64,000 nt of DNA from a virus: positions 85,499 to 149,498 of IMG/VR virus record IMGVR_UViG_3300042908_000680; one strand, 5' to 3'. Each line of letters opens with the position of its first letter. Positions within the stretch are counted from its first letter, which is position 1. The position numbers and the translations under genes are program-made. The notes under the pieces were generated by a model. It was given only the letters and a program-made list of their open reading frames with translations. It searched no databases and had not been told where the DNA came from. Below are positions 3,001 to 64,000 of this stretch, piece by piece.

Positions 3001-6000
3001 AGAATTTAAAGAAAAATATTTTTCTCAAGATATAGATGATATGTTCTTGCAATATGATTTAGTATATCCATCTGGAAGACCATTCTCCTCACTAATTAAA
3101 TTGCATAGTTCAAATGTTCGACTAGATGATGCTATATATATTAGCGAAAAATCAAATAGTCAGCTAAATCTAATTACAAGTGGACAAAAATATCAACTTG
3201 CAAATCTAAACTTATTTGCTCCAGAAAATGGTCCAATAATTAATTCTTATGCTAATCTTTTTGTAAGTGGAGTTGGTCCATCTAGACAACAGGTAAGTTT
3301 TTATATTAATAGCAGTGGTTATCCATGCGATAGCCCATATTTAAATATGTATACTTTTACTGTTGGCTCTGCTACTACAGAAGATCAAGTTTTTGGTGGT
3401 ATGTTTGGCTCATCTCCAGTAAAGGGGTTAGGATTATCTGTTAGTGGTCAATTTATGACAGAAACTAGTATGCCCTTATTTACATATGGATCTGGATACT
3501 ATTCTGAATCATATGTTAATTTAAGTACTCTAGTAGAAGATGATATCGTTAAAAATGAATATATAAACTTGGCTATTCGTGGAATATCTAAGTCTCAAGA
3601 TTTTTACCCATATTCTAGTATGCCATTATATGTCTATGGACAAGAATTCTCAACTGAAATAAATAATTACGCCCCGTTATTCGTGTTGAGCGATGATCTT
3701 AGTAGAGTTGTAGATTCTGGATCTCTAAACTTACATACTTTAAATTATCCAATATCTGATTCTCTCGCCAATAGCAGTGCCTCTATTAGATGGACCAATA
3801 ACAATGTTGGTAAAAACATAACAGTTCAAGATAACAGCTATGCTTATGTTGATTCAGATGATAACATTCGCGGCGTTGATTTATTATGTTATGGAACTTG
3901 CTCATCTAATAATAGATGTTCAGAAGCAGTAGTAGATATTCACGGGGTTAAGTGGTATGAACCAGAAGTTTGTGTTGACGGAGGAATATTCCGAGCCAAG
4001 TCTACATATACAAATCTAACATATCCAAGCGGATCATTCAGACACACCATTAGCCAAAATGAAGCAACAAATATACTCACAGAAAATTTATTTGTACTTT
4101 CTACTGAAAATAATGATTTCATGTCTACGGAGTCATCTCTAAATTCAGTTGTTTATGATATTATGCCATATAGTGGTCATTTCTATGGCATTAGAAAATA
4201 TACTGGATTGGCCCCCAATCTTCCATATGCCATTAATATAACTGGCAAGTCGGGATCAACAGATGCTATAGACATACCAACAGAAATTGTTGAAGTAGAA
4301 TATAATAAAAATGAAACTAATCTAACATCAACAGATTATAGTGGATTTAGGTTACTATCTAGTGGCACTAAAACTGCTGGAGATGAGTTTGGAAAATCTA
4401 TTGCGTCTAAAGATAATTTATTAGCGATAGGATCACCAAAAAGATCAATAGTATATAATAGTGGCGTTGGGTCAAATCTAACACTACAAGAGGCTGGGAC
4501 CGTATTCGTATATAGAAGACAAGAAAGACCTAGTGGATATAATTGGCCTTTAGATAATTATAAGTCTCCTTGGATACTGGAAACCGCCCTAACATTACCA
4601 TCTGGTATGCTAAAGGATTACTATACTCAATCAGAACTAGATCTTGGTTTACCATATAACTTAAGACCAATCCAAACAAGCTGGTTTGTTGGTCAAGAAG
4701 GAAGACAATTTGGACACTCGCTAGACATTTCCGTAAATAAAAATGAAAAATCATTAGGTGAGAGTTCTCGTCAAATAATTGTTGTTGGTGGCCCAAGTGC
4801 TAAATGGACTCCTAGAGTATTTGATAATACTCCACCATCCGATGTCAATATTGGATTAATAGTTTTTACTGACGAGTTTACTCCTAGAATTCCAGCACCA
4901 CTTCCTAATCAGCCCTTTAGAACTATAGGGTATGAAGAAGTTCTTGAATCTATAAAAGACAAAGACATAATATTTAATTATTTTGGTAATCCAAGAATCA
5001 AATTTAATGTTAAACTAATGATTTGCCAGCCTATCGCAGATAGTCCAGATATTGTTTCGCCAAGTTTTCCAGATAAACCAGATTTTATGGTTTTAAATTC
5101 TATAGGTAGAAATTCTGGATATAAACCAAATGCTGCAAAAACAGAGGCCATTGTCAGTGGTATTAAAGACGCTTTCTTTGAAGCGTTCCCATATGATAAT
5201 AGTAAAATTCATAACAATATACCACCAATTATCGGTTTATATATAGATAACAGCAGTTCTTTGGGTAGAGAATCTTTAGAGCCAGCTATAGATGAATTTG
5301 TTAAGTTCTATAAAAAATATAGCTTTGACAATGGGCTTATAGATTTTAATAACGTAAGAGAGTCTGGACAAGTAATTGAATATATTCCAGACACTTACGA
5401 TGCTGAAAATTGGGTTCAAATGTCAACGACAATACTTTCCGAAGTTTTAGATACTGGCAATCTAGTATCAAATAATCAAGTTAGATTTTTAACTGGTAGT
5501 GTTGGAACATTTAATACTAATCTTGGTCCTTTTAACATTCCTCCAGAGAGTGGTGGAAAAGCATATATTTTTGAAAAAGAAAGTGGTAATTGGAATCTTA
5601 TACAAGAAATCAAATCGCCCAATATCACCTATTCAAATCCAGACCGCTTTGGACATGCTGTTAGTATAAGCGATGACGGAGAATTGGTAGTAATTGGTTC
5701 TCCATACATAAATCAAGCTGTTACAATGTACGAGAGGAAAGAAGAAGAAAGAGATAGATTTTATTCTTCACTTTATAGTTGGGTAAAAACTAATCGTCCA
5801 GATAAATACTCATCTGAAATATTAACATATGAAAACTCTTATGGTTTTTCTAAAGATCAGCAAGCTTTGTATTTATCTTTAGACAAAACTGACAAATTCA
5901 AATCTAGGGTTGATCTTGGTATACAAGAGTATCAAAATATCTATACTTTTGATTATAGTAATATGCAATCAAATGGAAGTTGGTCATTCATTCCTAACGT

Positions 6001-54703: not shown

Positions 54704-55342
54704 TCAATATTCGTTAAAAAGTTTTCTGAACAATCTTTCAAGTATAAACTTTAATATAACGGGCAAAACAACATAGATTAGCAAGAATGTTAGCACAACT
54801 GATCCATGCATTACTTCTGGATCTTGTTTTATATTAGACATTACGAAGTCTTTGCAATCTCTTTTTAGTTGCCTCTTGCTATATTTGTCACACTCCGCAA
54901 AGTTCATTCCGCCTTGGCTAGCTATTGTAGCCCATTCGTTGCCATACTGCAAACATTTTTTGGCTAAAAAGTTTCTTTCTTCGTCTGCGTATTCAGCATC
55001 AATCTGAGCTTCTATATCGCTTGTGTCGAAAGAACTACCAAACAGAGTTTCTGAGTTTTCATCATATGAAAACTTGATATCTGGAAGGTATCTCAGCTTT
55101 AGTGTACCACCATCTTTACCCAAAGTCAAGCCCTGCACGTAAGCACTCAGCTTTATGTACTTTTGCCAAGTGACCTTTGGGAGAGATTCAGTAAATGAAA
55201 GAATGATATTTTCAGAGGTATCTTTTATGACTTTAATATCTAATGGCTGTGGGAAACTTATATTTAGATTTTTAATGTCATAACCATTTTTTGAAAAGAT
55301 GAAATCAACAATTTGTTTAATTTGTAAAATTGGTATTGCCAT
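54704..55342 (-). CDS. Hypothetical protein with C-terminal membrane anchor
   Basis: VVLTFLLIYVVLPVILKFIL near the C-terminus. Confidence 0.6.
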   Translation of the reverse strand: MAIPILQIKQIVDFIFSKNGYDIKNLNISFPQPLDIKVIKDTSENIILSFTESLPKVTWQKYIKLSAYVQGLTLGKDGGTLKLRYLPDIKFSYDENSETLFGSSFDTSDIEAQIDAEYADEERNFLAKKCLQYGNEWATIASQGGMNFAECDKYSKRQLKRDCKDFVMSNIKQDPEVMHGSVVLTFLLIYVVLPVILKFILERLFRKLFNEY

Positions 55343-55345
55343 ATG

Positions 55346-55813
55346 TTAATTCTTCTGTATTAGTGACCAAGCCAAGCCCATAAATCTATCTGAGATTTTA
55401 TTTTTTTCTTCGTCTGTTAGTTTATGATTATCATCACCACCAGCAGCAGAAGTAATTAAATCTATGATAGCAACGTCTAAATCTTTGTACTTATCGTTCA
55501 TGGACCCCTCAAAGAATCCATTTGCAGATAATGCTAGCACATCATTTACTTGTTGTAACTGAGCGTCATAGGTTTTTACCCTACTAGCAAACTCTTGACT
55601 ATATATAGCCATTTTTGCTCTATCTGTTGGATCAGTTATTAATGTCGATATTGGCTTAACTAATTCTATAATTTCGTCGCTGGGGCGATCAATATTTAGA
55701 ATAGCAACATCGGGCTTTGGAAAAACTGGAATTAAATTTAATACCGGTTTGTATAAAGCAAAACCTAGTAATACTAGTGCTATAAGATTTCTAACCTTAA
55801 GAAACTTTTCCAT
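55346..55813 (-). CDS. N-terminally anchored helical membrane protein
   Basis: LIALVLLGFALY TM/signal segment followed by a helical domain; GAGGA RBS before MEKFL. Confidence 0.6.
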   Translation of the reverse strand: MEKFLKVRNLIALVLLGFALYKPVLNLIPVFPKPDVAILNIDRPSDEIIELVKPISTLITDPTDRAKMAIYSQEFASRVKTYDAQLQQVNDVLALSANGFFEGSMNDKYKDLDVAIIDLITSAAGGDDNHKLTDEEKNKISDRFMGLAWSLIQKN

Positions 55814-56072
55814 CGTTGTCCTCAATTACTTTGTTTAATAGTGGAAATACTTCGTCTAATTTTTCAGACGCTACGGTTAAATGGTATTCATCGCATTTAT
55901 TTTTTAGCTGATACCATAAACTAACTATTTCCAAAAATCCCTCTTCTTTGTTCTCTACAACTTTGACTTTAGACTTAGCAAATAATCTAGATACCCAGTA
56001 TGGAATATCTACAAAGTTAGTTGCTAATATAAGTAAAGCAATTACAATCAACCAAACATTCCACGATTCCAT
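55797..56072 (-). CDS. Small membrane protein
   Basis: VWLIVIALLILA TM followed by a helical hairpin. Confidence 0.6.
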   Translation of the reverse strand: MESWNVWLIVIALLILATNFVDIPYWVSRLFAKSKVKVVENKEEGFLEIVSLWYQLKNKCDEYHLTVASEKLDEVFPLLNKVIEDNDGKVS

Positions 56073-56076
56073 CTTA

Positions 56077-56382
56077 TTACCTCTTTAAATTAGTGGTCTT
56101 TGCATGAAATGGGCATACTGTTTTATGACCATCTCCTTGAACTATTATTCCTGTGCCTTTGCAAATGCATTTTGCTGGATCTGGATCAACATCCACAACC
56201 GGCTGTGGTTTTGGATCTACCTTAAAAACCTCTTTTTCTGCATTGTCAAAAGCCGCCTTACACTTCTCTTGCCACTCCGTTACGTAAGAAGAGTACATAT
56301 TTGTTATATCTTCTGGATTGACAGAAAACATATTATTTGAGCATCCAGTTACTAATAATACTGATAGTATATATTTATTCAT
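56077..56382 (-). CDS. Lipoprotein with C-terminal Cys/His motif (DnaJ-type half zinc finger)
   Basis: MNKYILSVLLVTG-C lipobox; CICKGTG...CPFH. Confidence 0.7.
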   Translation of the reverse strand: MNKYILSVLLVTGCSNNMFSVNPEDITNMYSSYVTEWQEKCKAAFDNAEKEVFKVDPKPQPVVDVDPDPAKCICKGTGIIVQGDGHKTVCPFHAKTTNLKR

Positions 56383-56390
56383 TGTAAGTC

Positions 56391-57689
56391 CTAGTATAAA
56401 GTAAATGAGGATAGGTCGATAGTTGTTATCGTATATGAATTACCAGATCTATTATTTCTTGTCCAAAGTAGATTCATATTAGTATTTAATGTACTTATAA
56501 AATTACTATAGAATGGTCCACTGTCTGGTCCGGTCCATGTTATTATCAAAACCAATTGATTATTGATGATTAAAAATGATGGGTTGCCACTATCTCCACC
56601 TATTATTGATTCATGAAATAATATTCTATTTGGGTATGTATTATAATAACTATTATTGGGATCAAGATAATTTTGTGTTGGTTGCTGTGTATATGCGGAA
56701 CTGCCCGTTGGGTCCACGTATAGAAATTCTTTTACTAAAGCTTTTTCTTCTTGATCTAAAGATAGCATTGGAAGTCTGTAGATGGTATAAGTACCACTTT
56801 TATTTCTATAAATTGTAGGTAAATATATAGACCAATTAGAAGGAAGTAATTTGGCAAAACTAATGGAATTTGGTACGTCAGAATCTAAAAGTCCCAAATA
56901 AATATCAGTAGTTAATGTTGGTATTTTATCTATTAATGTTCTTTCTATAACAACATTATTGCTGGTGATAAATCTAACTTTAGCCCCTATATCCATTTCA
57001 TAGTGAGTTGCAAAAACTAAATGGCTTGGACTAATAAGAGTTCCGGCCCTAGTATTTGATCCAGTTGTATTCCAAGGACTTATGCAAGTTAAATCTAAAT
57101 CATAAGCCCAACAATTAGTATTTCTAACGTATGTAGAAGTTGAATGGTCTTGAGTACTATAAATGTTCTTTGCTATAGTTGGGTTTTTATTTAATAGTCT
57201 ATTATCGACATTATCAGAACAATTTTTTGCCAAGCTTCCAGATGTAAACTCACAAAAAGCATCTATTTGTCCACCTATATTACAATTGACATTTACTTCT
57301 GCAATGTTAAAATCAGATGTATTTATTCCACTTGCTATAATTTTTACTGCTCTTTTAGAAGTGCTTCCCGTTGGCACTCCAGAACATATATAGTTGTTAG
57401 GATTTAAATTTGATAAAATACTGTTATCTGTACTATATACAGTAACTGATATATCATCTTGTTTATATAATATTATATTAAAATCAGTTATAGTAGATGA
57501 ATTAGTAGATCTGAATACTGTAGCGTCATAATTCGTAGTATAGCCAGAGCCAGTAGAAACTAATATCCTATCTTGGGGCTGTGCTGTGATTTTTACTCTA
57601 TCTCCACCAATATCTGGTTTTTTAAACAGATAAGATGAATTCTCAGATATAGAACCACAATTGAGAGGTATATTTTGAGCTTCTATCAT
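56391..57689 (-). CDS. Trypsin-like serine protease (cassette 2)
   Basis: Triad: RAGTLISPSHLVFATHY, TDIYLGLL, GGDSGNP. N-terminal PLNCGS motif shared with its paralog. Confidence 0.85.
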   Translation of the reverse strand: MIEAQNIPLNCGSISENSSYLFKKPDIGGDRVKITAQPQDRILVSTGSGYTTNYDATVFRSTNSSTITDFNIILYKQDDISVTVYSTDNSILSNLNPNNYICSGVPTGSTSKRAVKIIASGINTSDFNIAEVNVNCNIGGQIDAFCEFTSGSLAKNCSDNVDNRLLNKNPTIAKNIYSTQDHSTSTYVRNTNCWAYDLDLTCISPWNTTGSNTRAGTLISPSHLVFATHYEMDIGAKVRFITSNNVVIERTLIDKIPTLTTDIYLGLLDSDVPNSISFAKLLPSNWSIYLPTIYRNKSGTYTIYRLPMLSLDQEEKALVKEFLYVDPTGSSAYTQQPTQNYLDPNNSYYNTYPNRILFHESIIGGDSGNPSFLIINNQLVLIITWTGPDSGPFYSNFISTLNTNMNLLWTRNNRSGNSYTITTIDLSSFTLY

Positions 57690-58993
57690 TATGGTGTTCC
57701 ATAGCTAGCTTGACAGTAATTTACTGCCGCTACCCATCTAATATTTTTAGTTGCTAATCCAGTAACTCTAATAGACAATCCTCCATTTGTAGCATCTGCT
57801 GCTACGCTGGCTAAAGCCGAAGTCATACCAGCATCTTTCCAGCTTGTTTCAGTGGGTGTTCCAATCAAAGCGGTAGTACTAGCACCAACCCCTCTTTTAA
57901 TACCTCCAACAAAATTCCATACGGCTGAAGAAGTATCCGTGTCATTATAAGCACTAATTTGTATGTTAAAATTTACCGTAGTTTTATCTGGTAAAAATAT
58001 AAAATTTCTTGAAATTGTGTTATTTGGCGATGTCACTAAAGATGCAGATCCATTTGCCGTTAAAATCACATTTGATGTATTACTTGATGTTTCAATTCTT
58101 AGCACTATAGTTGATAGCTGTGCATCTCCCGCAGAAGAGAAACTACCACCGGCTTGCGCCACTTCTCCAAACAAAGTAGTTTTTGCAGATCGACCACCTA
58201 AAATAGATGAATATACTCCGCTAGTAATATTGTTTTGACCGGCAATAATGCTAGAAGATTCAGCAATTGCTGTGTTTGTATATCCATTTCCAATAAAGGT
58301 GTAGTCTGAAATAGTAGAATTACCAAAACCATTTATAATAGCAGAATAATTTCCTCTATTATTATTAAAAAATCCATTACATATCAAACCAAAGTCAGCG
58401 GATGTTACAGTATTTCTTTGACCATTAATTATGGTAGCGCGATTAGAGCTTGATGTTCCAGCAGTATTTCTATCTCCATTAAGAATAGATGTATAAACAC
58501 CGCTACCAACACAGCCATTACCAGATAAAATTGTTATATAATAACCACTTGCAGTACAAGTATTAGCGTGATAAATACCATTATAGTTAAAACTTGAACC
58601 AAGCAGTGATGAAATTATTGAGTTTCCTGATCCCAAGCATAGATTTCCGCTTCCTAATATATTGTTAAATTTTGTAGTATTATTACCAGAGATTTCAACT
58701 ATTGGGGATGAGATTACTATTCCGCCAACTATAGATCCATCACCAACATATAGTTTTTTAGTATCGGTTGTCCATAACGGTTCTGCTACCGATGGAGTTA
58801 CCAATAGTCTTTCTGAATCAAGACCCTGCTTTAATTGCAAAGTTGCAGCTTGATTTAGTACAGAACTTCTTAATGTGCTGGCAGAAACTTTTTTTGTTAT
58901 TGCTTGATCATTTGGGCTATCCACCATAACAAAAAGATCATCATCTGTTACAGATGATACTGATGGTAACTGCGTTATTTTTACAACACCCAT
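57689..58993 (-). CDS. Tail-fibre-like protein: Mtd/hyaluronidase-type N-terminal anchor + beta-helix repeats (cassette 2)
   Basis: KITQLP..DDDLFVMVD..TKKVS; LQLKQG..TP..AEP..TDTKKLYVGDG..GG; ~15-aa SxIxxGxxN repeats; C-terminal LSIRVTG..IRWVA domain. Confidence 0.75.
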   Translation of the reverse strand: MGVVKITQLPSVSSVTDDDLFVMVDSPNDQAITKKVSASTLRSSVLNQAATLQLKQGLDSERLLVTPSVAEPLWTTDTKKLYVGDGSIVGGIVISSPIVEISGNNTTKFNNILGSGNLCLGSGNSIISSLLGSSFNYNGIYHANTCTASGYYITILSGNGCVGSGVYTSILNGDRNTAGTSSSNRATIINGQRNTVTSADFGLICNGFFNNNRGNYSAIINGFGNSTISDYTFIGNGYTNTAIAESSSIIAGQNNITSGVYSSILGGRSAKTTLFGEVAQAGGSFSSAGDAQLSTIVLRIETSSNTSNVILTANGSASLVTSPNNTISRNFIFLPDKTTVNFNIQISAYNDTDTSSAVWNFVGGIKRGVGASTTALIGTPTETSWKDAGMTSALASVAADATNGGLSIRVTGLATKNIRWVAAVNYCQASYGTP

Positions 58994-59002
58994 ATTAAAC
59001 TC

Positions 59003-60211
59003 CTAATAAGATAAAAAAGATGAAAGATCTATTGTAGTCAATTGATACCCACCGCCAAGCTGAGACATCATTTGATTTATTGCATCTTTTTCTAATGATG
59101 TAAAGCTTCCAGATCCACCTATCCCCCAAGTAGTAACAAATATGAGTACTAATTCATTATTTATCAAAAGAAATGCCGGACTACCAGAATCTCCAGTATA
59201 TAGCTCTCTAAAAAATGGTCTACGTATAGAAGTTAGTTCTTGACCTATACATTTTGCTATAGAAGATAACTGATATAGGTTTGTGACGCTTACATATTCT
59301 GACTGATCCACTATTATAACCGGTATTTCTATTCCACGCTTAATATTTGGCAGATATTTTCCAAAGTCAATTGGAAGAATTTTTGTAAATAAAATTGTAT
59401 TTGGAAGATCTGAATCCAATAAACCCACTTGTATATCATTGAACTTACTTGTAGAATTATAATTTGGATGAGTAATAATACCCGTGATAGTTCTAGTTAT
59501 TGATACATTATTATTTGTTACAAATCTTATAGTTGATCCACTTGCAATAGGATAGTGGGCAGCAAACATTACATGCCTAGGGCTTATCAAAACGCCCGCC
59601 CTGTTTGCTATTCCGTAGGAATTCCATGGGCTGATGCATGTAAAATCAACATTTTTAAATACAAAAGAAGAATTTCTAGTGTAAATATTATTTGCGTGAT
59701 TTTGAATAGAGTATACTTGCTGTGAAGAGGTTGGTGATATTCCAGATATTTTTAAATCTACTTGATCTGTTATATGACTTGATAAACTATTATTCACAAA
59801 AGACAAAAAGGTATCTTGATTTGATGTACTACCAATTGGAGAATATTGTATATTGATATTAACATATTGATTAGATCCATCATCAAAAGATAGTTCTAAT
59901 ATATCATTTCCTACTGATATTCCAGAACATTGCAGATTATTAACAAGAACATTATTTGAATAGTTTTTTATAGATATTATTTTTTTACTAGATGATTCAA
60001 AGATAAAATCTCTGATTCCAGATGAACTAGATACTCTATATATATTTGTATCTTTGTCAATTATGGAACCCGAAGATGATGGCGAAATGGGCCTAAAATA
60101 ACTACTATATTCCAACCTTGAAGATAAATTGGGTTTACTAAATGTCCAAGATGGAGGATTATTAGTAGATCCACAGTTTATCGGAACGCCTTTTGCTTGT
60201 AAAATAGACAT
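59003..60211 (-). CDS. Trypsin-like serine protease (cassette 1)
   Basis: Triad: RAGVLISPRHVMFAAHY, NDIQVGLL, TGDSGSP. Likely start is MSILQAKGVPINCGS. Confidence 0.85.
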   Translation of the reverse strand: MSILQAKGVPINCGSTNNPPSWTFSKPNLSSRLEYSSYFRPISPSSSGSIIDKDTNIYRVSSSSGIRDFIFESSSKKIISIKNYSNNVLVNNLQCSGISVGNDILELSFDDGSNQYVNINIQYSPIGSTSNQDTFLSFVNNSLSSHITDQVDLKISGISPTSSQQVYSIQNHANNIYTRNSSFVFKNVDFTCISPWNSYGIANRAGVLISPRHVMFAAHYPIASGSTIRFVTNNNVSITRTITGIITHPNYNSTSKFNDIQVGLLDSDLPNTILFTKILPIDFGKYLPNIKRGIEIPVIIVDQSEYVSVTNLYQLSSIAKCIGQELTSIRRPFFRELYTGDSGSPAFLLINNELVLIFVTTWGIGGSGSFTSLEKDAINQMMSQLGGGYQLTTIDLSSFLSY

Positions 60212-60212
60212 A

Positions 60213-61541
60213 TTATGTAGTTGTTGTATCAACGATGTAGTTTTTGGCAGTTGCTATACTAGTATTATGTGTGCTAATACCCGGATTCCCATATACATAA
60301 ATAGTTTTTGATGTTGCCGCCGTTGGTAAAAGATTGTAAATATTATTTAACTGTGCCGCTGAAAATTGACAATTTTTGAATGAAAAATTGCCATATGAAT
60401 TGTTAAAATTTATTTGAGAAAGATTTGTACATCCATCTAAAACAAATGTACCGGGTGATATAATTGATGGAGAAAAAGTAATTGATTGTAGCGTTGTTGA
60501 ATTTGTTAAGTTTAAATTATTGATTTTATTATTGCTAAAATTTAAAGATGTTATTTTTGCACCCTCAAATGCTAACCAACTTAAGTTAATGTTACTAGAT
60601 AAATCTATAGATGACAGATTGGTATTACCAATAAATAAACTTGATAAATTAGTACAATTTTTAAGATTTAATTTTGATAATGATGCGTTGTAAGTAAGAT
60701 ATACTGTTGTAAGACCAGAGGCGTTAGAAAAGTCTACCCATTGTAAATTATCATTTCCATTCATGTTACAATATGTGACGGTTGGAATTTTTATCCACTC
60801 TAAATTTGATACCACATTTCCATTTATTTGTATTCCACTGACATTATTTTTTAGATGAATATATTTTACTGTATCATTACTATCAATTGATATACCTGTC
60901 AAAGATGTCATTTCTTCAAAGTTAATCTCAAAATTTTTAGAACTAGCACTACTGGAAAAGTTTATTATGTTACCAGATTGAGCAGCATTACCAGATGAGC
61001 AACTCCAATAGTATAATTCTTTTATTGAATTTTTAGCATATATTCCAGTATTTGAAGAATTAAGTGCAATTGAAGCTGTTATAGAACTGCTTGGATTTCC
61101 ATTTCCAAAAACTCTAACATCACCACTTGGTGTTTGTACAGCTAAATACCCAGTTGATGTATTAAATGTTGCTGAGTGTGATGATGAACTACTATTGCTT
61201 TTTATTCTCATCATCCCACTAGGTATACATAATGGACTTGGATATATTGGGCCAGTGTATACTGGATATCCACCTTGAGTATATCCATCTCCTATATATA
61301 GATTAGATTTATTTGTAGAAAATACTGGTTCACCAAGAGAAGGAATAACTGATAATAATTCAGATTCAAGTCCCTGTCTAAGTTGTAATGCCGCTGGCTG
61401 GCTTAATAAAGAATTTCTTAGTAAACTTGCAGATATTCTTTTTGTTACAGCATTGCCGCTTGGATCATCTAATATCAGCAATAAATCATCATCAGTAACA
61501 GATGATCCAGATGGTAATTGATTGATTCTTATTATACCCAT
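60213..61541 (-). CDS. Tail-fibre-like protein: same N-terminal anchor + leucine-rich repeats (cassette 1)
   Basis: RINQLP..DDDLLLILD..TKRIS; LQLRQG..GEPVFSTNKSNLYIGDG..GG; LRRs LSKLNLKNCTNLSSLFIGNTNLSSIDLSSNINLSWL. Confidence 0.75.
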   Translation of the reverse strand: MGIIRINQLPSGSSVTDDDLLLILDDPSGNAVTKRISASLLRNSLLSQPAALQLRQGLESELLSVIPSLGEPVFSTNKSNLYIGDGYTQGGYPVYTGPIYPSPLCIPSGMMRIKSNSSSSSHSATFNTSTGYLAVQTPSGDVRVFGNGNPSSSITASIALNSSNTGIYAKNSIKELYYWSCSSGNAAQSGNIINFSSSASSKNFEINFEEMTSLTGISIDSNDTVKYIHLKNNVSGIQINGNVVSNLEWIKIPTVTYCNMNGNDNLQWVDFSNASGLTTVYLTYNASLSKLNLKNCTNLSSLFIGNTNLSSIDLSSNINLSWLAFEGAKITSLNFSNNKINNLNLTNSTTLQSITFSPSIISPGTFVLDGCTNLSQINFNNSYGNFSFKNCQFSAAQLNNIYNLLPTAATSKTIYVYGNPGISTHNTSIATAKNYIVDTTTT

Positions 61542-61542
61542 A

Positions 61543-61791
61543 TTAAACTCCTAATATACCAGAAGCACCAGTTGTATAATAAGTAACATTATCAAATCTA
61601 TTAGTTAATCTACTAGCATTAGCGGTATACGAATAAGACTTTTCATATTCAAAAGGGCTAATTAAAGCTTGATAGTTACCACTACCACTAATAGGTCTTC
61701 CAAACCAACAATATACAACGGCTGAACCATTTTGAATTGTTTCTCTACCAGAAACCACATTGGTAATTACATCGGTTGTTGAGATTGGCAT
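61543..61791 (-). CDS. Small hypothetical (possibly virion) protein
   Basis: 82 aa with a GGGG RBS; SG-rich. Confidence 0.55.
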   Translation of the reverse strand: MPISTTDVITNVVSGRETIQNGSAVVYCWFGRPISGSGNYQALISPFEYEKSYSYTANASRLTNRFDNVTYYTTGASGILGV

Positions 61792-61807: not shown

Positions 61808-62728
61808 TTAAAATTGATCTTTTAATGTCCAAACTACTTTTCTTGGAGGAAAACCGTCTACATCACTAAATACCCAAGAGCCATTTTGTGCCAACATTTC
61901 TGCTGCATCTCGCTCTCTTATCCAGAAACTTCCATCTGGTTGATCTAAACGCTTCTCGCCATTATTCCAAACTCCCCAAGAGTTTTGGACTAAGAATAGT
62001 GTTTCATTATAAATTTCATGAGTATCATCCATCCCAATCCAAGCCATCGCGTGACCCCATGATCCAGATCGGGCGGCAATACCATTCTTATCTCTTCTAG
62101 AACTAAATCCAGAATTACTGCATACACTAATAGAATAACCATTGGCTATTGCATCTCTGGCTTGATCTATTGTGTTAATTAAGCTGATGGTCTTAACTTG
62201 ATGTTTCTTCGCCGCCTTTACTAATTCTTCTGGAACACCAGTTCTGCCCCACTTACCACCAATAGCACTATATGTTGAAAGATCATAATCTCCGTACTTT
62301 TGACGAAGTAATATTCCTCCATTTTGGTGGACGAATTTAGCAGCACCACCACAAGTCATACCTTCACCGCCGTGTCCGCGTGAACCATAAATACCTTCAG
62401 TAGCACCACGGGCCACAAACTCTTCTCGTTGCCCATTTATAATTTCACAACTGCGTGTAATATCTACGCTATTTCGCGTTGCATGTGAAACACAATCTCC
62501 TTGGACTTGCCTTTCTGATGGACCAAAAGAGGGATCAAACTTCAAGAGAGACTTAAACGGTAGGGATAGTTTTCCTTTTCCAGTACCATATAAATCATGT
62601 GCTGCCACACCGAATAGTGGATGTGGCAGTTCTCCTAAGAGCTTGTCCAACTCTTTTGGGTCACAGTATGATCCTACAAAGCCATCTTTATAGGCTTTTA
62701 ATAAATCTTTCGGTGTCTTGAACATCAC
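61808..62728 (-). CDS. Papain-family (C1-like) cysteine peptidase
   Basis: QVQGDCVSHA (oxyanion Q and catalytic C), WGHAMA (H), QNSWG (N), GSFWI. Confidence 0.88.
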   Translation of the reverse strand: MMFKTPKDLLKAYKDGFVGSYCDPKELDKLLGELPHPLFGVAAHDLYGTGKGKLSLPFKSLLKFDPSFGPSERQVQGDCVSHATRNSVDITRSCEIINGQREEFVARGATEGIYGSRGHGGEGMTCGGAAKFVHQNGGILLRQKYGDYDLSTYSAIGGKWGRTGVPEELVKAAKKHQVKTISLINTIDQARDAIANGYSISVCSNSGFSSRRDKNGIAARSGSWGHAMAWIGMDDTHEIYNETLFLVQNSWGVWNNGEKRLDQPDGSFWIRERDAAEMLAQNGSWVFSDVDGFPPRKVVWTLKDQF

Positions 62729-62946
62729 TTTGAGTTATCCTTTGCCCACTTAACTATTGTGTTAATTAATACCACTGTAACAGGCACAATTAGTGCTGTC
62801 ATGCTACCAAGATCAAGCTTAGTTAGATTTTCGCCAATATATGTTAATAGTGCGGCTAAACCAACTAATGCTGCGTTCTTACCAACTGAAATAAGATCAG
62901 TTGTATTTAATGAGAATGCTTTGGAACCTACTTTTAGATCTAACAT
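62725..62946 (-). CDS. Holin-like small two-TM membrane protein
   Basis: 73 aa; hydrophobic segments AALVGLAALLTYI and TALIVPVTVVLINTIV; basic C-tail KWAKDNSK. Confidence 0.6.
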   Translation of the reverse strand: MLDLKVGSKAFSLNTTDLISVGKNAALVGLAALLTYIGENLTKLDLGSMTALIVPVTVVLINTIVKWAKDNSK

Positions 62947-62947
62947 C

Positions 62948-63541
62948 TTATATCTCCTTGAGTTGAGAAATGCTTATTAAAAATCCACCATGCTCCTTGT
63001 CATTTATCCTATATGGAAATCCCATCATTTTGACTATCTTATCATCTACTGTTTGTACTGTTTTGACTAATTTTCTATTCATTTTTAAGCAAGATTTCAA
63101 TTCATCAAAAAGATCTTCTCTATCTTCTTCTTTTACATAATTGAGCCAATCATAACCCTCTACACTATTAACAACATCTTGTGTTAATTCATAAAAATTA
63201 TTGTTGGTCCAAGTTAGTCTACCATGATCGTCTGTTTCAAATAATGCTGCATCATTATAATGAAGTGCAGCTTTTGTTCTTTGTTCTATAACTTTTTGTC
63301 TTTTTTCCATTCTATTAACGGTGGATCTTAAATCTACAATAGCATCTTTTAAACTATTTCCACCATTAGTTGTTAGTTCTTTTTTGATTGTTTCTAATGA
63401 TCTGCCAACTTCTTCTTGACCTTTAACAAATTTAATTGCTGGTCTTATTACCTTAACCCACATTAAGCTAAAAAATGTGCCTAGACCACCTATAATACTA
63501 AATATAAAGGTGATATGTTCTGGACTTTTTATGTCTAGCAT
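62948..63541 (-). CDS. Membrane protein: TM + NGGxSLKD coiled coil + PAS domain
   Basis: TM ITFIFSIIGGLGTFFSLMWV; ELTTNGGNSLKDAI; PAS signature LFETDDHGRLTWTN..F..LT....EGYDWLNYVKEEDRE. The start is at 63541 or 63553. Confidence 0.75.
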   Translation of the reverse strand: MLDIKSPEHITFIFSIIGGLGTFFSLMWVKVIRPAIKFVKGQEEVGRSLETIKKELTTNGGNSLKDAIVDLRSTVNRMEKRQKVIEQRTKAALHYNDAALFETDDHGRLTWTNNNFYELTQDVVNSVEGYDWLNYVKEEDREDLFDELKSCLKMNRKLVKTVQTVDDKIVKMMGFPYRINDKEHGGFLISISQLKEI

Positions 63542-63559
63542 AATTGCCCCCATAGGAAA

Positions 63560-63599
63560 AAGGAGAATAAAGTGCCTTAAGATTTCTCAAAAGGCACTT
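63560..63599 (-). terminator. Putative intrinsic terminator/hairpin
   Basis: 9-bp inverted repeat AAGTGCCTT (63570-63578)/AAGGCACTT (63591-63599), followed on the minus strand by TATTCTCCTTTT. Confidence 0.55.
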
Positions 63600-63614: not shown

Positions 63615-64000
63615 TTAAAGATTAATGCCAGATTCTGCTGCATCCTTGGCCTTGTAGGCAACATTACGAGTTGGTAAAGCTGCTCCAAATCTGTATGTAA
63701 GTTCACCGGGAACTGCTCTATTAGTACTTGCAGCATCATCAATAGCTGGGAAGTTACCGCTGGTAGCTCTATAAGTTATAGCAGTGCCAGCACCAGTACC
63801 TCTAGTGAGGCCGGGGAAATTACCACTAGATGGAGTTGCAAGAACATTGAATGCTCTTGTAGCATATGAACCAAACTGAGTAGTCTTTAGATTCTTATTA
63901 ATAACAGCTTCTGTAGCACCGCCGGGAACATTTAGAAGCGTAGTAGCAGAACCATTGATACTGGAAGCATTGTCTCCAGCACCAATCATTAGGAAATTAG
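63615..64000 (-). CDS. Hypothetical (probably virion) protein, 5' end outside the window
   Basis: The frame is open to the window edge; A/G/T-rich with a C-terminal RAVPGELTY motif. Confidence 0.55.
   Translation of the reverse strand, partial: NFLMIGAGDNASSINGSATTLLNVPGGATEAVINKNLKTTQFGSYATRAFNVLATPSSGNFPGLTRGTGAGTAITYRATSGNFPAIDDAASTNRAVPGELTYRFGAALPTRNVAYKAKDAAESGINL

Follow-up and report, generated by a model that had tools for sequence, protein, structure and literature searches.

What takes the place of the endolysin in a large phage genome in which no known wall hydrolase can be recognized? The question is raised by three adjoining genes near the end of IMG/VR virus record IMGVR_UViG_3300042908_000680, a linear record of 149,498 bp that is 94% complete by CheckV. 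Its final 64 kb (record positions 85,499 to 149,498) form the stretch analysed here, referred to as the window, and coordinates are window positions unless the record is named. A first-pass annotation had proposed that the three genes form a sensor-gated lysis module, in which a transmembrane (TM) protein with a PAS domain times a 73-aa holin-like protein (s73) and a papain-family (C1) cysteine peptidase fills the endolysin slot. The reading that we favor, at a probability of roughly 55%, is a conserved, envelope-directed, lysis-type module in which s73 would release the C1A peptidase, the peptidase would act in the periplasm with two further module proteins (m159 and m101), and the PAS protein would be an optional timing accessory.

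The three open reading frames (ORFs) exist as first described and are co-directional on the minus strand, encoding the TM-PAS protein (63553/63541..62948), s73 (62946..62725) and the peptidase (62728/62725..61808). The TAA stop of the TM-PAS gene lies 1 nt before the ATG of the 73-aa gene, which has AAGGAG 8 nt upstream, and the TGA of the 73-aa gene overlaps the ATG of the peptidase gene. The proposed translational coupling can thus be read directly from the stop/start spacing. Homologues fixed the start of the peptidase at the ATG that gives a protein of 305 aa, and homologues of the TM-PAS protein begin at the second ATG (63541), which gives 197 aa; the alternative ATG is at 63553.

Judged by its modeled structure, the product of the gene at 61808..62725 (minus strand) is a C1A papain-family peptidase of the xylellain type. 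The AlphaFold model (predicted local distance difference test, pLDDT, 92.7; predicted template modeling score, pTM, 0.93) has the two-lobed papain fold, and its best solved counterpart was xylellain from Xylella fastidiosa (PDB 3OIS; Foldseek E 2.4e-10, Z 21.4, root-mean-square deviation (rmsd) 2.9 Å over 231 residues). Procathepsins and papain matched the model at Z 17-20 (procathepsins at Z 19-20). The first ~45 residues of the model align with procathepsin pro-regions, and the peptidase is probably zymogen-like. Xylellain shares the fold, a short N-terminal segment resembling a pro-region and the Q/C/H/N active site, but it is only 18% identical, and the phage peptidases form a family with conserved partners and inteins of their own. 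The sole Pfam match of the peptidase, to PF00112 (Peptidase_C1), fell below the gathering threshold (19.0 vs. 20.7 bits); the homologue P0091 carries a precomputed match to the same family. The peptidase had no match in a PHROG search or in a tblastn search of 50,697 deposited phage genomes, blastn of the region gave none either, and phmmer against PDB sequences returned nothing for the peptidase or the TM-PAS protein. In an alignment of 45 homologues with 33-87% identity, Q73, C78, H225 and W250 were invariant and N248 and S249 were kept in at least 90%, which gives a Cys-His pair, an oxyanion Gln and an orienting Asn within an NSW motif. The intact Q/C/H/N set ascribed to this signal-less enzyme was therefore borne out, with N248 nearly invariant.

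The peptidase had 1348 matches in 90% clusters, the top 120 at 75-99% identity, and the family comprised 1528 representatives at 50% identity, of which the best 150 were surveyed for architecture and inteins. Inserts longer than 100 aa were present in 39 of these 150, located between D77 and C78 in 27, between H225 and residue 226 in 11 and near N248/S249 in 4. Residue 226 was Cys in alleles with an insert after H225, and some proteins carried two or three inteins. The junctions read ...GD/C...HN/C(78) and ...H/C...HN/C(226), with the stroke marking the splice point, and Pfam detected Intein_splicing, Hint and LAGLIDADG_3 domains in the four proteins tested (P0241, P0243, P0263, and P0373); these homologues thus contain genuine inteins. 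The copy in the window is intein-free. Because inteins occupy three catalytic positions, the active site would be the most constrained part of a gene that phages cannot lose, and the peptidase family is essential-looking. A 2023 survey reported horizontal transfer of C1A genes of the xylellain ('short bacterial') type into Caudoviricetes, namely Myoviridae and Siphoviridae, and assigned them no role (PMC10380794). Phage proteins in BFVD matched the C1 model at E 5e-7 to 3e-6 (A0A6J5MXS7, A0A8S5PQA2, and A0A8S5SPG9). Their names, 'Peptidoglycan binding-like', 'N acetylmuramidase (fragment)' and 'Copper amine oxidase', suggest, as a lead only, that C1-like domains are joined to wall-binding modules.

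The search for a conventional endolysin was extended from the window to the whole record. A six-frame search found no Phage_lysozyme, Amidase_2, SLT, M15_4, Amidase_3, CHAP, GH25, M23 or M15_3 domain in the record. It found no GH19 or GH108 domain either, but their absence proves little because the control genomes were silent for both. A Pfam scan of 113 mid-size ORFs had no endolysin family among the matches listed. Ten related records (129-174 kb; six of the ten at least 90% complete; three with terminal repeats) were searched likewise, and seven hydrolase families were absent from them in six frames, among them NlpC/P60, for which the six-frame search covered these ten relatives only. The profile searches therefore agree with the first-pass observation that the window has no canonical endolysin and extend it to the rest of the genome. 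The peptidase itself does not belong to a known peptidoglycan-hydrolase family, C1 being its only Pfam match. Across the record (G000) and its relatives (G001-G010), no lysozyme, SLT or M23 domain was seen even in giant virion or tape-measure proteins. The phage toolkit is unusually protease-heavy, with three or four trypsin-like genes; one encodes a secreted or anchored protease near the record start (L001:1194-1997, minus strand). The structural block carries a ClpP-type protease and a T4-type terminase. With a ClpP-type protease in that block, capsid maturation does not require the C1 enzyme, and a role as prohead protease was rejected.

The gene between the TM-PAS and peptidase genes (62725..62946, minus strand) encodes s73. 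As first described, s73 has two hydrophobic segments; the second contains an invariant P55, and the protein ends in a charged KDNxK tail. It is thus a small TM protein with a charged C-terminus that adjoins the candidate lytic enzyme, as holins are. In the ESM Atlas, the clusters closest to it bear the automatic name 'Holin family protein' (score 0.95; chance expectation about 1 in 100). Among 78 loci with enough flanking DNA, s73 was directly upstream of the peptidase in 64, a two-TM protein of 58-62 aa (KSRRFWVSAVGL...) was present instead in 14, and none had both. The shorter protein is encoded between m101 and m91, and its family matches PHROG_297 'holin' at E 0.006. The possibility that the two are one translocated gene was rejected (hhalign probability 0.6%). 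Small TM proteins that are mutually exclusive and, by profile comparison, non-homologous within one module are typically the pattern of holins, although these counts are not phylogenetically independent.

Conservation of gene order was evaluated in 80 loci from IMG/VR and another 14 from genome collections, which were retrieved with a single protein and a narrower alignment as queries. The order of a ~210-aa gene, the PAS gene, s73 and the peptidase gene was kept at peptidase identities from 99% down to 64%, so that the predicted synteny of the three genes held in related contigs. The module itself is larger than first described: the three genes are linked, but gene order indicates that they are the head of a longer conserved module that adds a lipoprotein and three anchored proteins and whose remainder is separated by inserted fibre and trypsin cassettes. 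Homologues of the window genes at 54704-56382 follow downstream in the conserved order m101-m91-m159-m212, and m101 directly abuts the peptidase gene in many loci. The gap between the two spans 0.8-10 kb, depending on the relative, and is a hot spot filled by variable fibre genes (loci L013-L054). The window has two fibre (Mtd_N) genes there (56391..61541, minus strand), each paired with a trypsin-like gene, as identified by the Pfam families Mtd_N and Trypsin.

All four downstream genes lie on the minus strand. The m101 gene (56077..56382) encodes a lipoprotein with the lipobox LVTGC, a Pro-rich linker containing the KVDPKPQPVVDVDPDP stretch and a C-terminal Cys-knuckle (CxCxGxG..GDGH..CPxH). 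The m91 protein (55797..56072) has an N-terminal TM helix, m159 (55346..55825; probable start ATG 55813) has an N-terminal TM anchor followed by a domain of ~125 aa, and m212 (54704..55342) has a C-terminal TM anchor. A PHROG search returned no match for m101 or m212. As a short, Pro-rich lipoprotein, m101 resembles an outer-membrane spanin (o-spanin), and m159 or m91 would be the candidate inner-membrane spanin (i-spanin), but the gene arrangement is not that of a spanin pair: the lipoprotein gene comes first and the genes are separate, whereas an i-spanin gene precedes or embeds that of its o-spanin.

Parts of the module also occur together in distant settings. On an unrelated contig (L009), a peptidase 41% identical to that of the window lies beside an s73 homologue (36% identity, E 2e-11). 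The PAS protein there has the reverse layout (PAS, coiled coil and C-terminal TM helix), has only generic PAS similarity and gave an unmarked PF08447 match; further partners are a two-TM protein, a lipoprotein and a secreted Cys-knuckle joined to a WCGPC thioredoxin. High-G+C chromosomal or metagenome-assembled genome (MAG) loci of Planctomycetota (L100, L102, L103, and L104) encode peptidases with 36-42% identity that are preceded by a TM protein, and in the complete genome of Anatilimnocola sp. NA78 (L103) a lipoprotein and a 62-aa two-TM protein follow the peptidase. These loci look prophage-like and might hint at host range or origin. The Pfam scan of the neighbors of the Anatilimnocola locus detected CAP, lipid desaturase and HerA-like domains, which are uninformative on lysis.

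The architecture of the peptidase homologues bears on where the enzyme works. Most of the 150 representatives (109) were plain proteins without a signal, like that of the window. Fourteen had an N-terminal TM helix and an extension of ~190-260 aa before the peptidase domain, and the extension was m159-like by BLAST in four: P0295 (E 7e-6), P0279 (4e-4), P0285 (2e-3) and P0313 (9e-5; found with the m159 copy of locus L056, not that of the window). Three had signals of the twin-arginine translocation (Tat) type with an RRxF motif, and one had a lipobox. The Cys-knuckle of m101 was found C-terminal to the peptidase in P0279 (BLAST E 5e-6), P0316 (3e-5) and P0346 (9e-4), and by motif only in P0285; five of the 150 ended in a CxxC tail without a Pfam match. 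Such Rosetta-stone fusions link the peptidase with both m159 and m101 and place it outside the cytoplasm; together with the export and anchor signals of homologues, they indicate that the peptidase most likely acts outside the cytoplasm. Like an endolysin, the enzyme is thus coupled to a holin-like gene and has homologues that would reach the periplasm by a signal anchor, Tat signal or lipobox.

Single proteins of 500-800 aa (P0279, P0285, P0295, P0297, P0301, P0315, P0316, and P0346) unite the fused parts, which are an N-terminal TM helix with an m159-like domain, the C1 peptidase, the m101 Cys-knuckle and the CxxC tail (thioredoxin-like?). The phage also encodes a secreted thioredoxin with a signal peptide and a WCKYC motif near the record start (record 5195-5536, minus strand). 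Other phages encode a secreted thioredoxin within the module itself (L038 and L044) or as a fusion with the Cys-knuckle (L009).

The TM-PAS protein (62948..63541, minus strand) has 360 homologues, mostly of 197 aa. Its AlphaFold model (pLDDT 76) consists of one helix at residues 7-94, comprising the TM segment and a long helix that carries KKELTTNGGNSLKD, and a PAS fold at residues 99-193 with a five-stranded antiparallel sheet and flanking helices. The modeled fold had 194 PDB matches at E ≤1e-3 with PAS domains first (Foldseek E ~2e-5), and ARNT PAS-B aligned with the model at an rmsd of 2.5 Å over 104 columns. Pfam matches to the PAS clan were below threshold (E 0.008-0.04; best PAS_10, 17.3 vs. 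22.1 bits). No output domain follows the PAS fold, so the model agrees with the first-pass description of a single TM segment, a long helix and a stand-alone PAS domain. A cytoplasmic location of the PAS domain is suggested by the K/R residues that follow the TM helix. The invariant H94 and C151 are candidates only for cofactor or ligand residues, and the LOV-type NCRFL motif was not seen in the domain. The statement that TM proteins with an NGGxSLxD motif are known from phage lysis cassettes went unconfirmed: the only PHROG 'holin' match had an E of 0.16, tblastn of the N-terminal 95 aa against phage genomes gave only noise (E>1), and the ESM Atlas held no usable match for the N-terminal half.

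Among the loci surveyed, the PAS gene was never found without s73. Three loci (L038, L039, and L044) do have s73 without it and encode, instead of the PAS protein, a TM-coiled-coil protein of 103-109 aa and a protein of 168 aa, and PAS is absent from loci with the alternative holin-like protein of 58-62 aa (h62-type). Since the PAS protein is replaced or absent in these related modules, it is dispensable there. A complex prediction for the TM-PAS protein and s73 scored 0.00 without controls and is not used as evidence either way. Adjacency and co-occurrence are what points to a coupling of the PAS protein to s73, and we hold it tentatively, as the less probable case. Hence the first-pass interpretation survives in part: the peptidase occupies the endolysin position of a lysis-like module and is linked to a holin-like gene, but timing of the holin by PAS is conjectural.

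According to the favored reading of a lysis-type module, the signal-less peptidase, probably in a zymogen-like state, would build up in the cytoplasm until s73 permeabilized the inner membrane and released it. In the periplasm, it would work with the inner-membrane-anchored m159 and the lipoprotein m101 to cut peptide bonds that hold the envelope together, either in peptidoglycan stems and cross-links or in wall or outer-membrane tether proteins, and would thereby substitute for a muralytic endolysin. The membrane-anchored, cytoplasmic PAS protein would be an optional accessory that most plausibly adjusts holin timing. The parts of this scheme that we infer are hole formation, the substrate, the role in lysis and PAS-holin coupling. 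A bolder extension, which we regard as rather doubtful, is that host lysis in a widespread clade of aquatic phages is proteolytic and not muralytic. The C1A peptidase, either holin-released or self-anchored, would form a complex with m159, the outer-membrane m101 and, in some phages, a periplasmic thioredoxin and cut peptide or protein links of the envelope, while a cytoplasmic PAS sensor would time the holin by a metabolic, redox or small-molecule signal.

Several observations weigh against the favored reading. Neither Pfam nor PHROG gave a match for s73 at E up to 1, so s73 belongs to no curated holin family. The gene block lies in a strand block oriented with replication and early genes, away from the structural genes. 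The synteny counts are not independent because the loci that they cover are phylogenetically related. A divergent muralytic enzyme could also be present, given the many ORFs without a family. Known cysteine-peptidase lysins are C40, C51 or C71 enzymes, and C1A is not a known muralytic family (PMC10318531; bioRxiv 10.1101/2025.01.22.634383). The mycobacteriophage LysA N4 domain, tried as a C1 precedent, was rejected as C40 (bioRxiv 10.1101/2025.01.22.634383).

Four other explanations account for parts of these data. The module could be an envelope-remodeling or superinfection-exclusion system, an unlikely possibility. A periplasmic m159-C1-m101 protease would trim host surface or periplasmic proteins such as receptors, and the small TM proteins would serve as anchors or exclusion factors. 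Export signals of the peptidase and its fusions to membrane partners would suit such a system, as would the location of the module in an early/replication-oriented block beside hypervariable fibre genes; T5-like phages carry lipoprotein exclusion genes beside receptor-binding genes. However, the adjoining fibres vary freely whereas m101 and the peptidase show strong conservation, the signal-less majority form needs a hole to exit the cytoplasm, and no other candidate lytic enzyme was found in the genomes searched. The absence of such an enzyme also bears on a related explanation, to which we give a small probability: the genes form a lysis module in which the peptidase has an auxiliary part, spanin-like or cutting outer-membrane or Lpp/OmpA-type tethers, and the true wall enzyme is an unrecognised fold encoded elsewhere or an anchored protein. 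To our knowledge, C1A enzymes are protein and peptide endopeptidases without activity on stems that contain D-amino acids, and the fusions to an inner-membrane anchor and a lipoprotein domain make a trans-envelope arrangement like that of spanins; many ORFs of the genome, moreover, have no family. The peptidase is nevertheless the only enzyme of the module, its active site is targeted by three intein sites, and the searches of eleven genomes turned up no candidate muralytic gene.

That the enzyme is a cytoplasmic protease processing phage or host proteins during takeover or anti-defence, with membrane-protein neighbors unrelated in function, is improbable. The lack of a signal sequence in the window's protein and in 109 of the 150 representatives would be explained, and xylellain-type bacterial C1A enzymes include intracellular forms (PMC10380794). 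This explanation does not account for the 18 representatives with a signal anchor, Tat signal or lipobox, for the fusions to the exported m101 knuckle, or for the coupling to TM and lipoprotein genes, which holds to 36-41% identity and includes the Planctomycetota chromosomal loci. A function in maturing or assembling the neighboring tail fibres, or as a virion protease, is very improbable. Mtd_N fibre genes are the next genes downstream in this phage and several relatives, but many relatives lack a fibre gene at that position and have m101 directly next to the peptidase. Trypsin-like genes of their own come with the fibre cassettes, the structural block has a ClpP-type protease, and conservation of the peptidase (64-99%) contrasts with the variability of the fibres.

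The remaining features of the region lie on either side of the three genes. Upstream, at 63615..64000 (minus strand), is the 3' part of a conserved ~210-aa gene ('up'), whose homologue (~205-210 aa) lies ~1.5 kb upstream of the peptidase gene in nearly all PAS-type loci. The gene is truncated by the record end, with only the C-terminal 124-127 aa present, which fits the estimate of 94% completeness; its product has no family match in Pfam or PHROG. Between 'up' and the TM-PAS gene is a terminator-like hairpin (63570..63599, minus strand) with a perfect 9-bp stem (AAGTGCCTT/AAGGCACTT), a 12-nt loop and a T-rich tail. A promoter and terminator consensus scan of the region gave hits at chance level only and missed this hairpin because its loop exceeds 8 nt. 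Since 'up' ends in a strong hairpin, it may be highly expressed. Downstream of the peptidase, the gene at 61543..61791 (minus strand) encodes an 82-aa soluble protein (s82) with no TM segment and no PHROG match. Its distance from the peptidase is 0-8 kb in relatives, and because of this variable position it probably belongs to the fibre cassette and not to the module. Near-identical phage-type loci (L093-L097, one of them a 152-kb contig) occur in MAGs labeled SAR202, Promethearchaeota, Dehalococcoidia and Flavobacteriales; these are probably phage contigs mis-binned into MAGs.

Compared with known lysis systems, the module resembles the lambda S-R-Rz/Rz1, phage 21 and P1 cassettes in that a small two-TM protein is encoded directly upstream of, and coupled to, a soluble hydrolase, and in the lipoprotein and N-anchored membrane proteins that follow downstream. 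The signal-less and signal-anchored forms of the peptidase homologues parallel canonical endolysins and the signal-anchor-release endolysins of phage 21 and P1. Unlike those cassettes, the enzyme is a C1A peptidase and not a glycosidase, an amidase or an M15, M23, CHAP or NlpC peptidase; the lipoprotein contains a Cys-knuckle and is encoded ahead of the TM proteins; the module begins with an additional membrane protein that bears a PAS domain; and the module is known from sequence and models. Domains of the CHAP (C51), NlpC/P60 (C40, as in D29 LysA N4) and PeiW/PeiP (C71) types act on wall peptides in phage lysis and share with the peptidase the papain-like clan and a Cys-His nucleophile pair, but they have a minimal alpha+beta papain-like core, whereas the phage peptidase is a two-lobed C1A enzyme. 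Like lambda S107, T4 RI/RIII and P1 LydB, the TM-PAS protein is membrane-associated, is encoded beside a holin-like gene and could set lysis timing, although it has no homology to any of them. T4 RI illustrates that lysis timing can respond to a signal; we know of no PAS sensor domain described on an antiholin or lysis-timing protein. Among virus-encoded papain-family proteases, the baculovirus C1A cathepsin V-cath is a zymogen used late, together with a chitinase, to break host barriers, but it differs in its eukaryotic host, in causing tissue liquefaction, in being an endoplasmic reticulum-retained proenzyme and in its independent acquisition (PMC10380794). We found no publication that gives a C1A peptidase a role in lysis or describes a PAS-bearing holin partner.

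For most abundant, uncultured aquatic phages, the lysis genes are unknown. If the favored reading is true, hosts would be lysed by a new enzymatic route, with a protease in place of the endolysin; this protease would be a candidate new class of lytic enzyme, in a family of more than 1500 sequence clusters, and would explain large phage genomes without any known wall hydrolase. The fusions and the three active-site inteins are ready experimental handles. A holin partner with a PAS domain, if real, would be the first candidate for a phage lysis clock gated by a ligand or by redox state.

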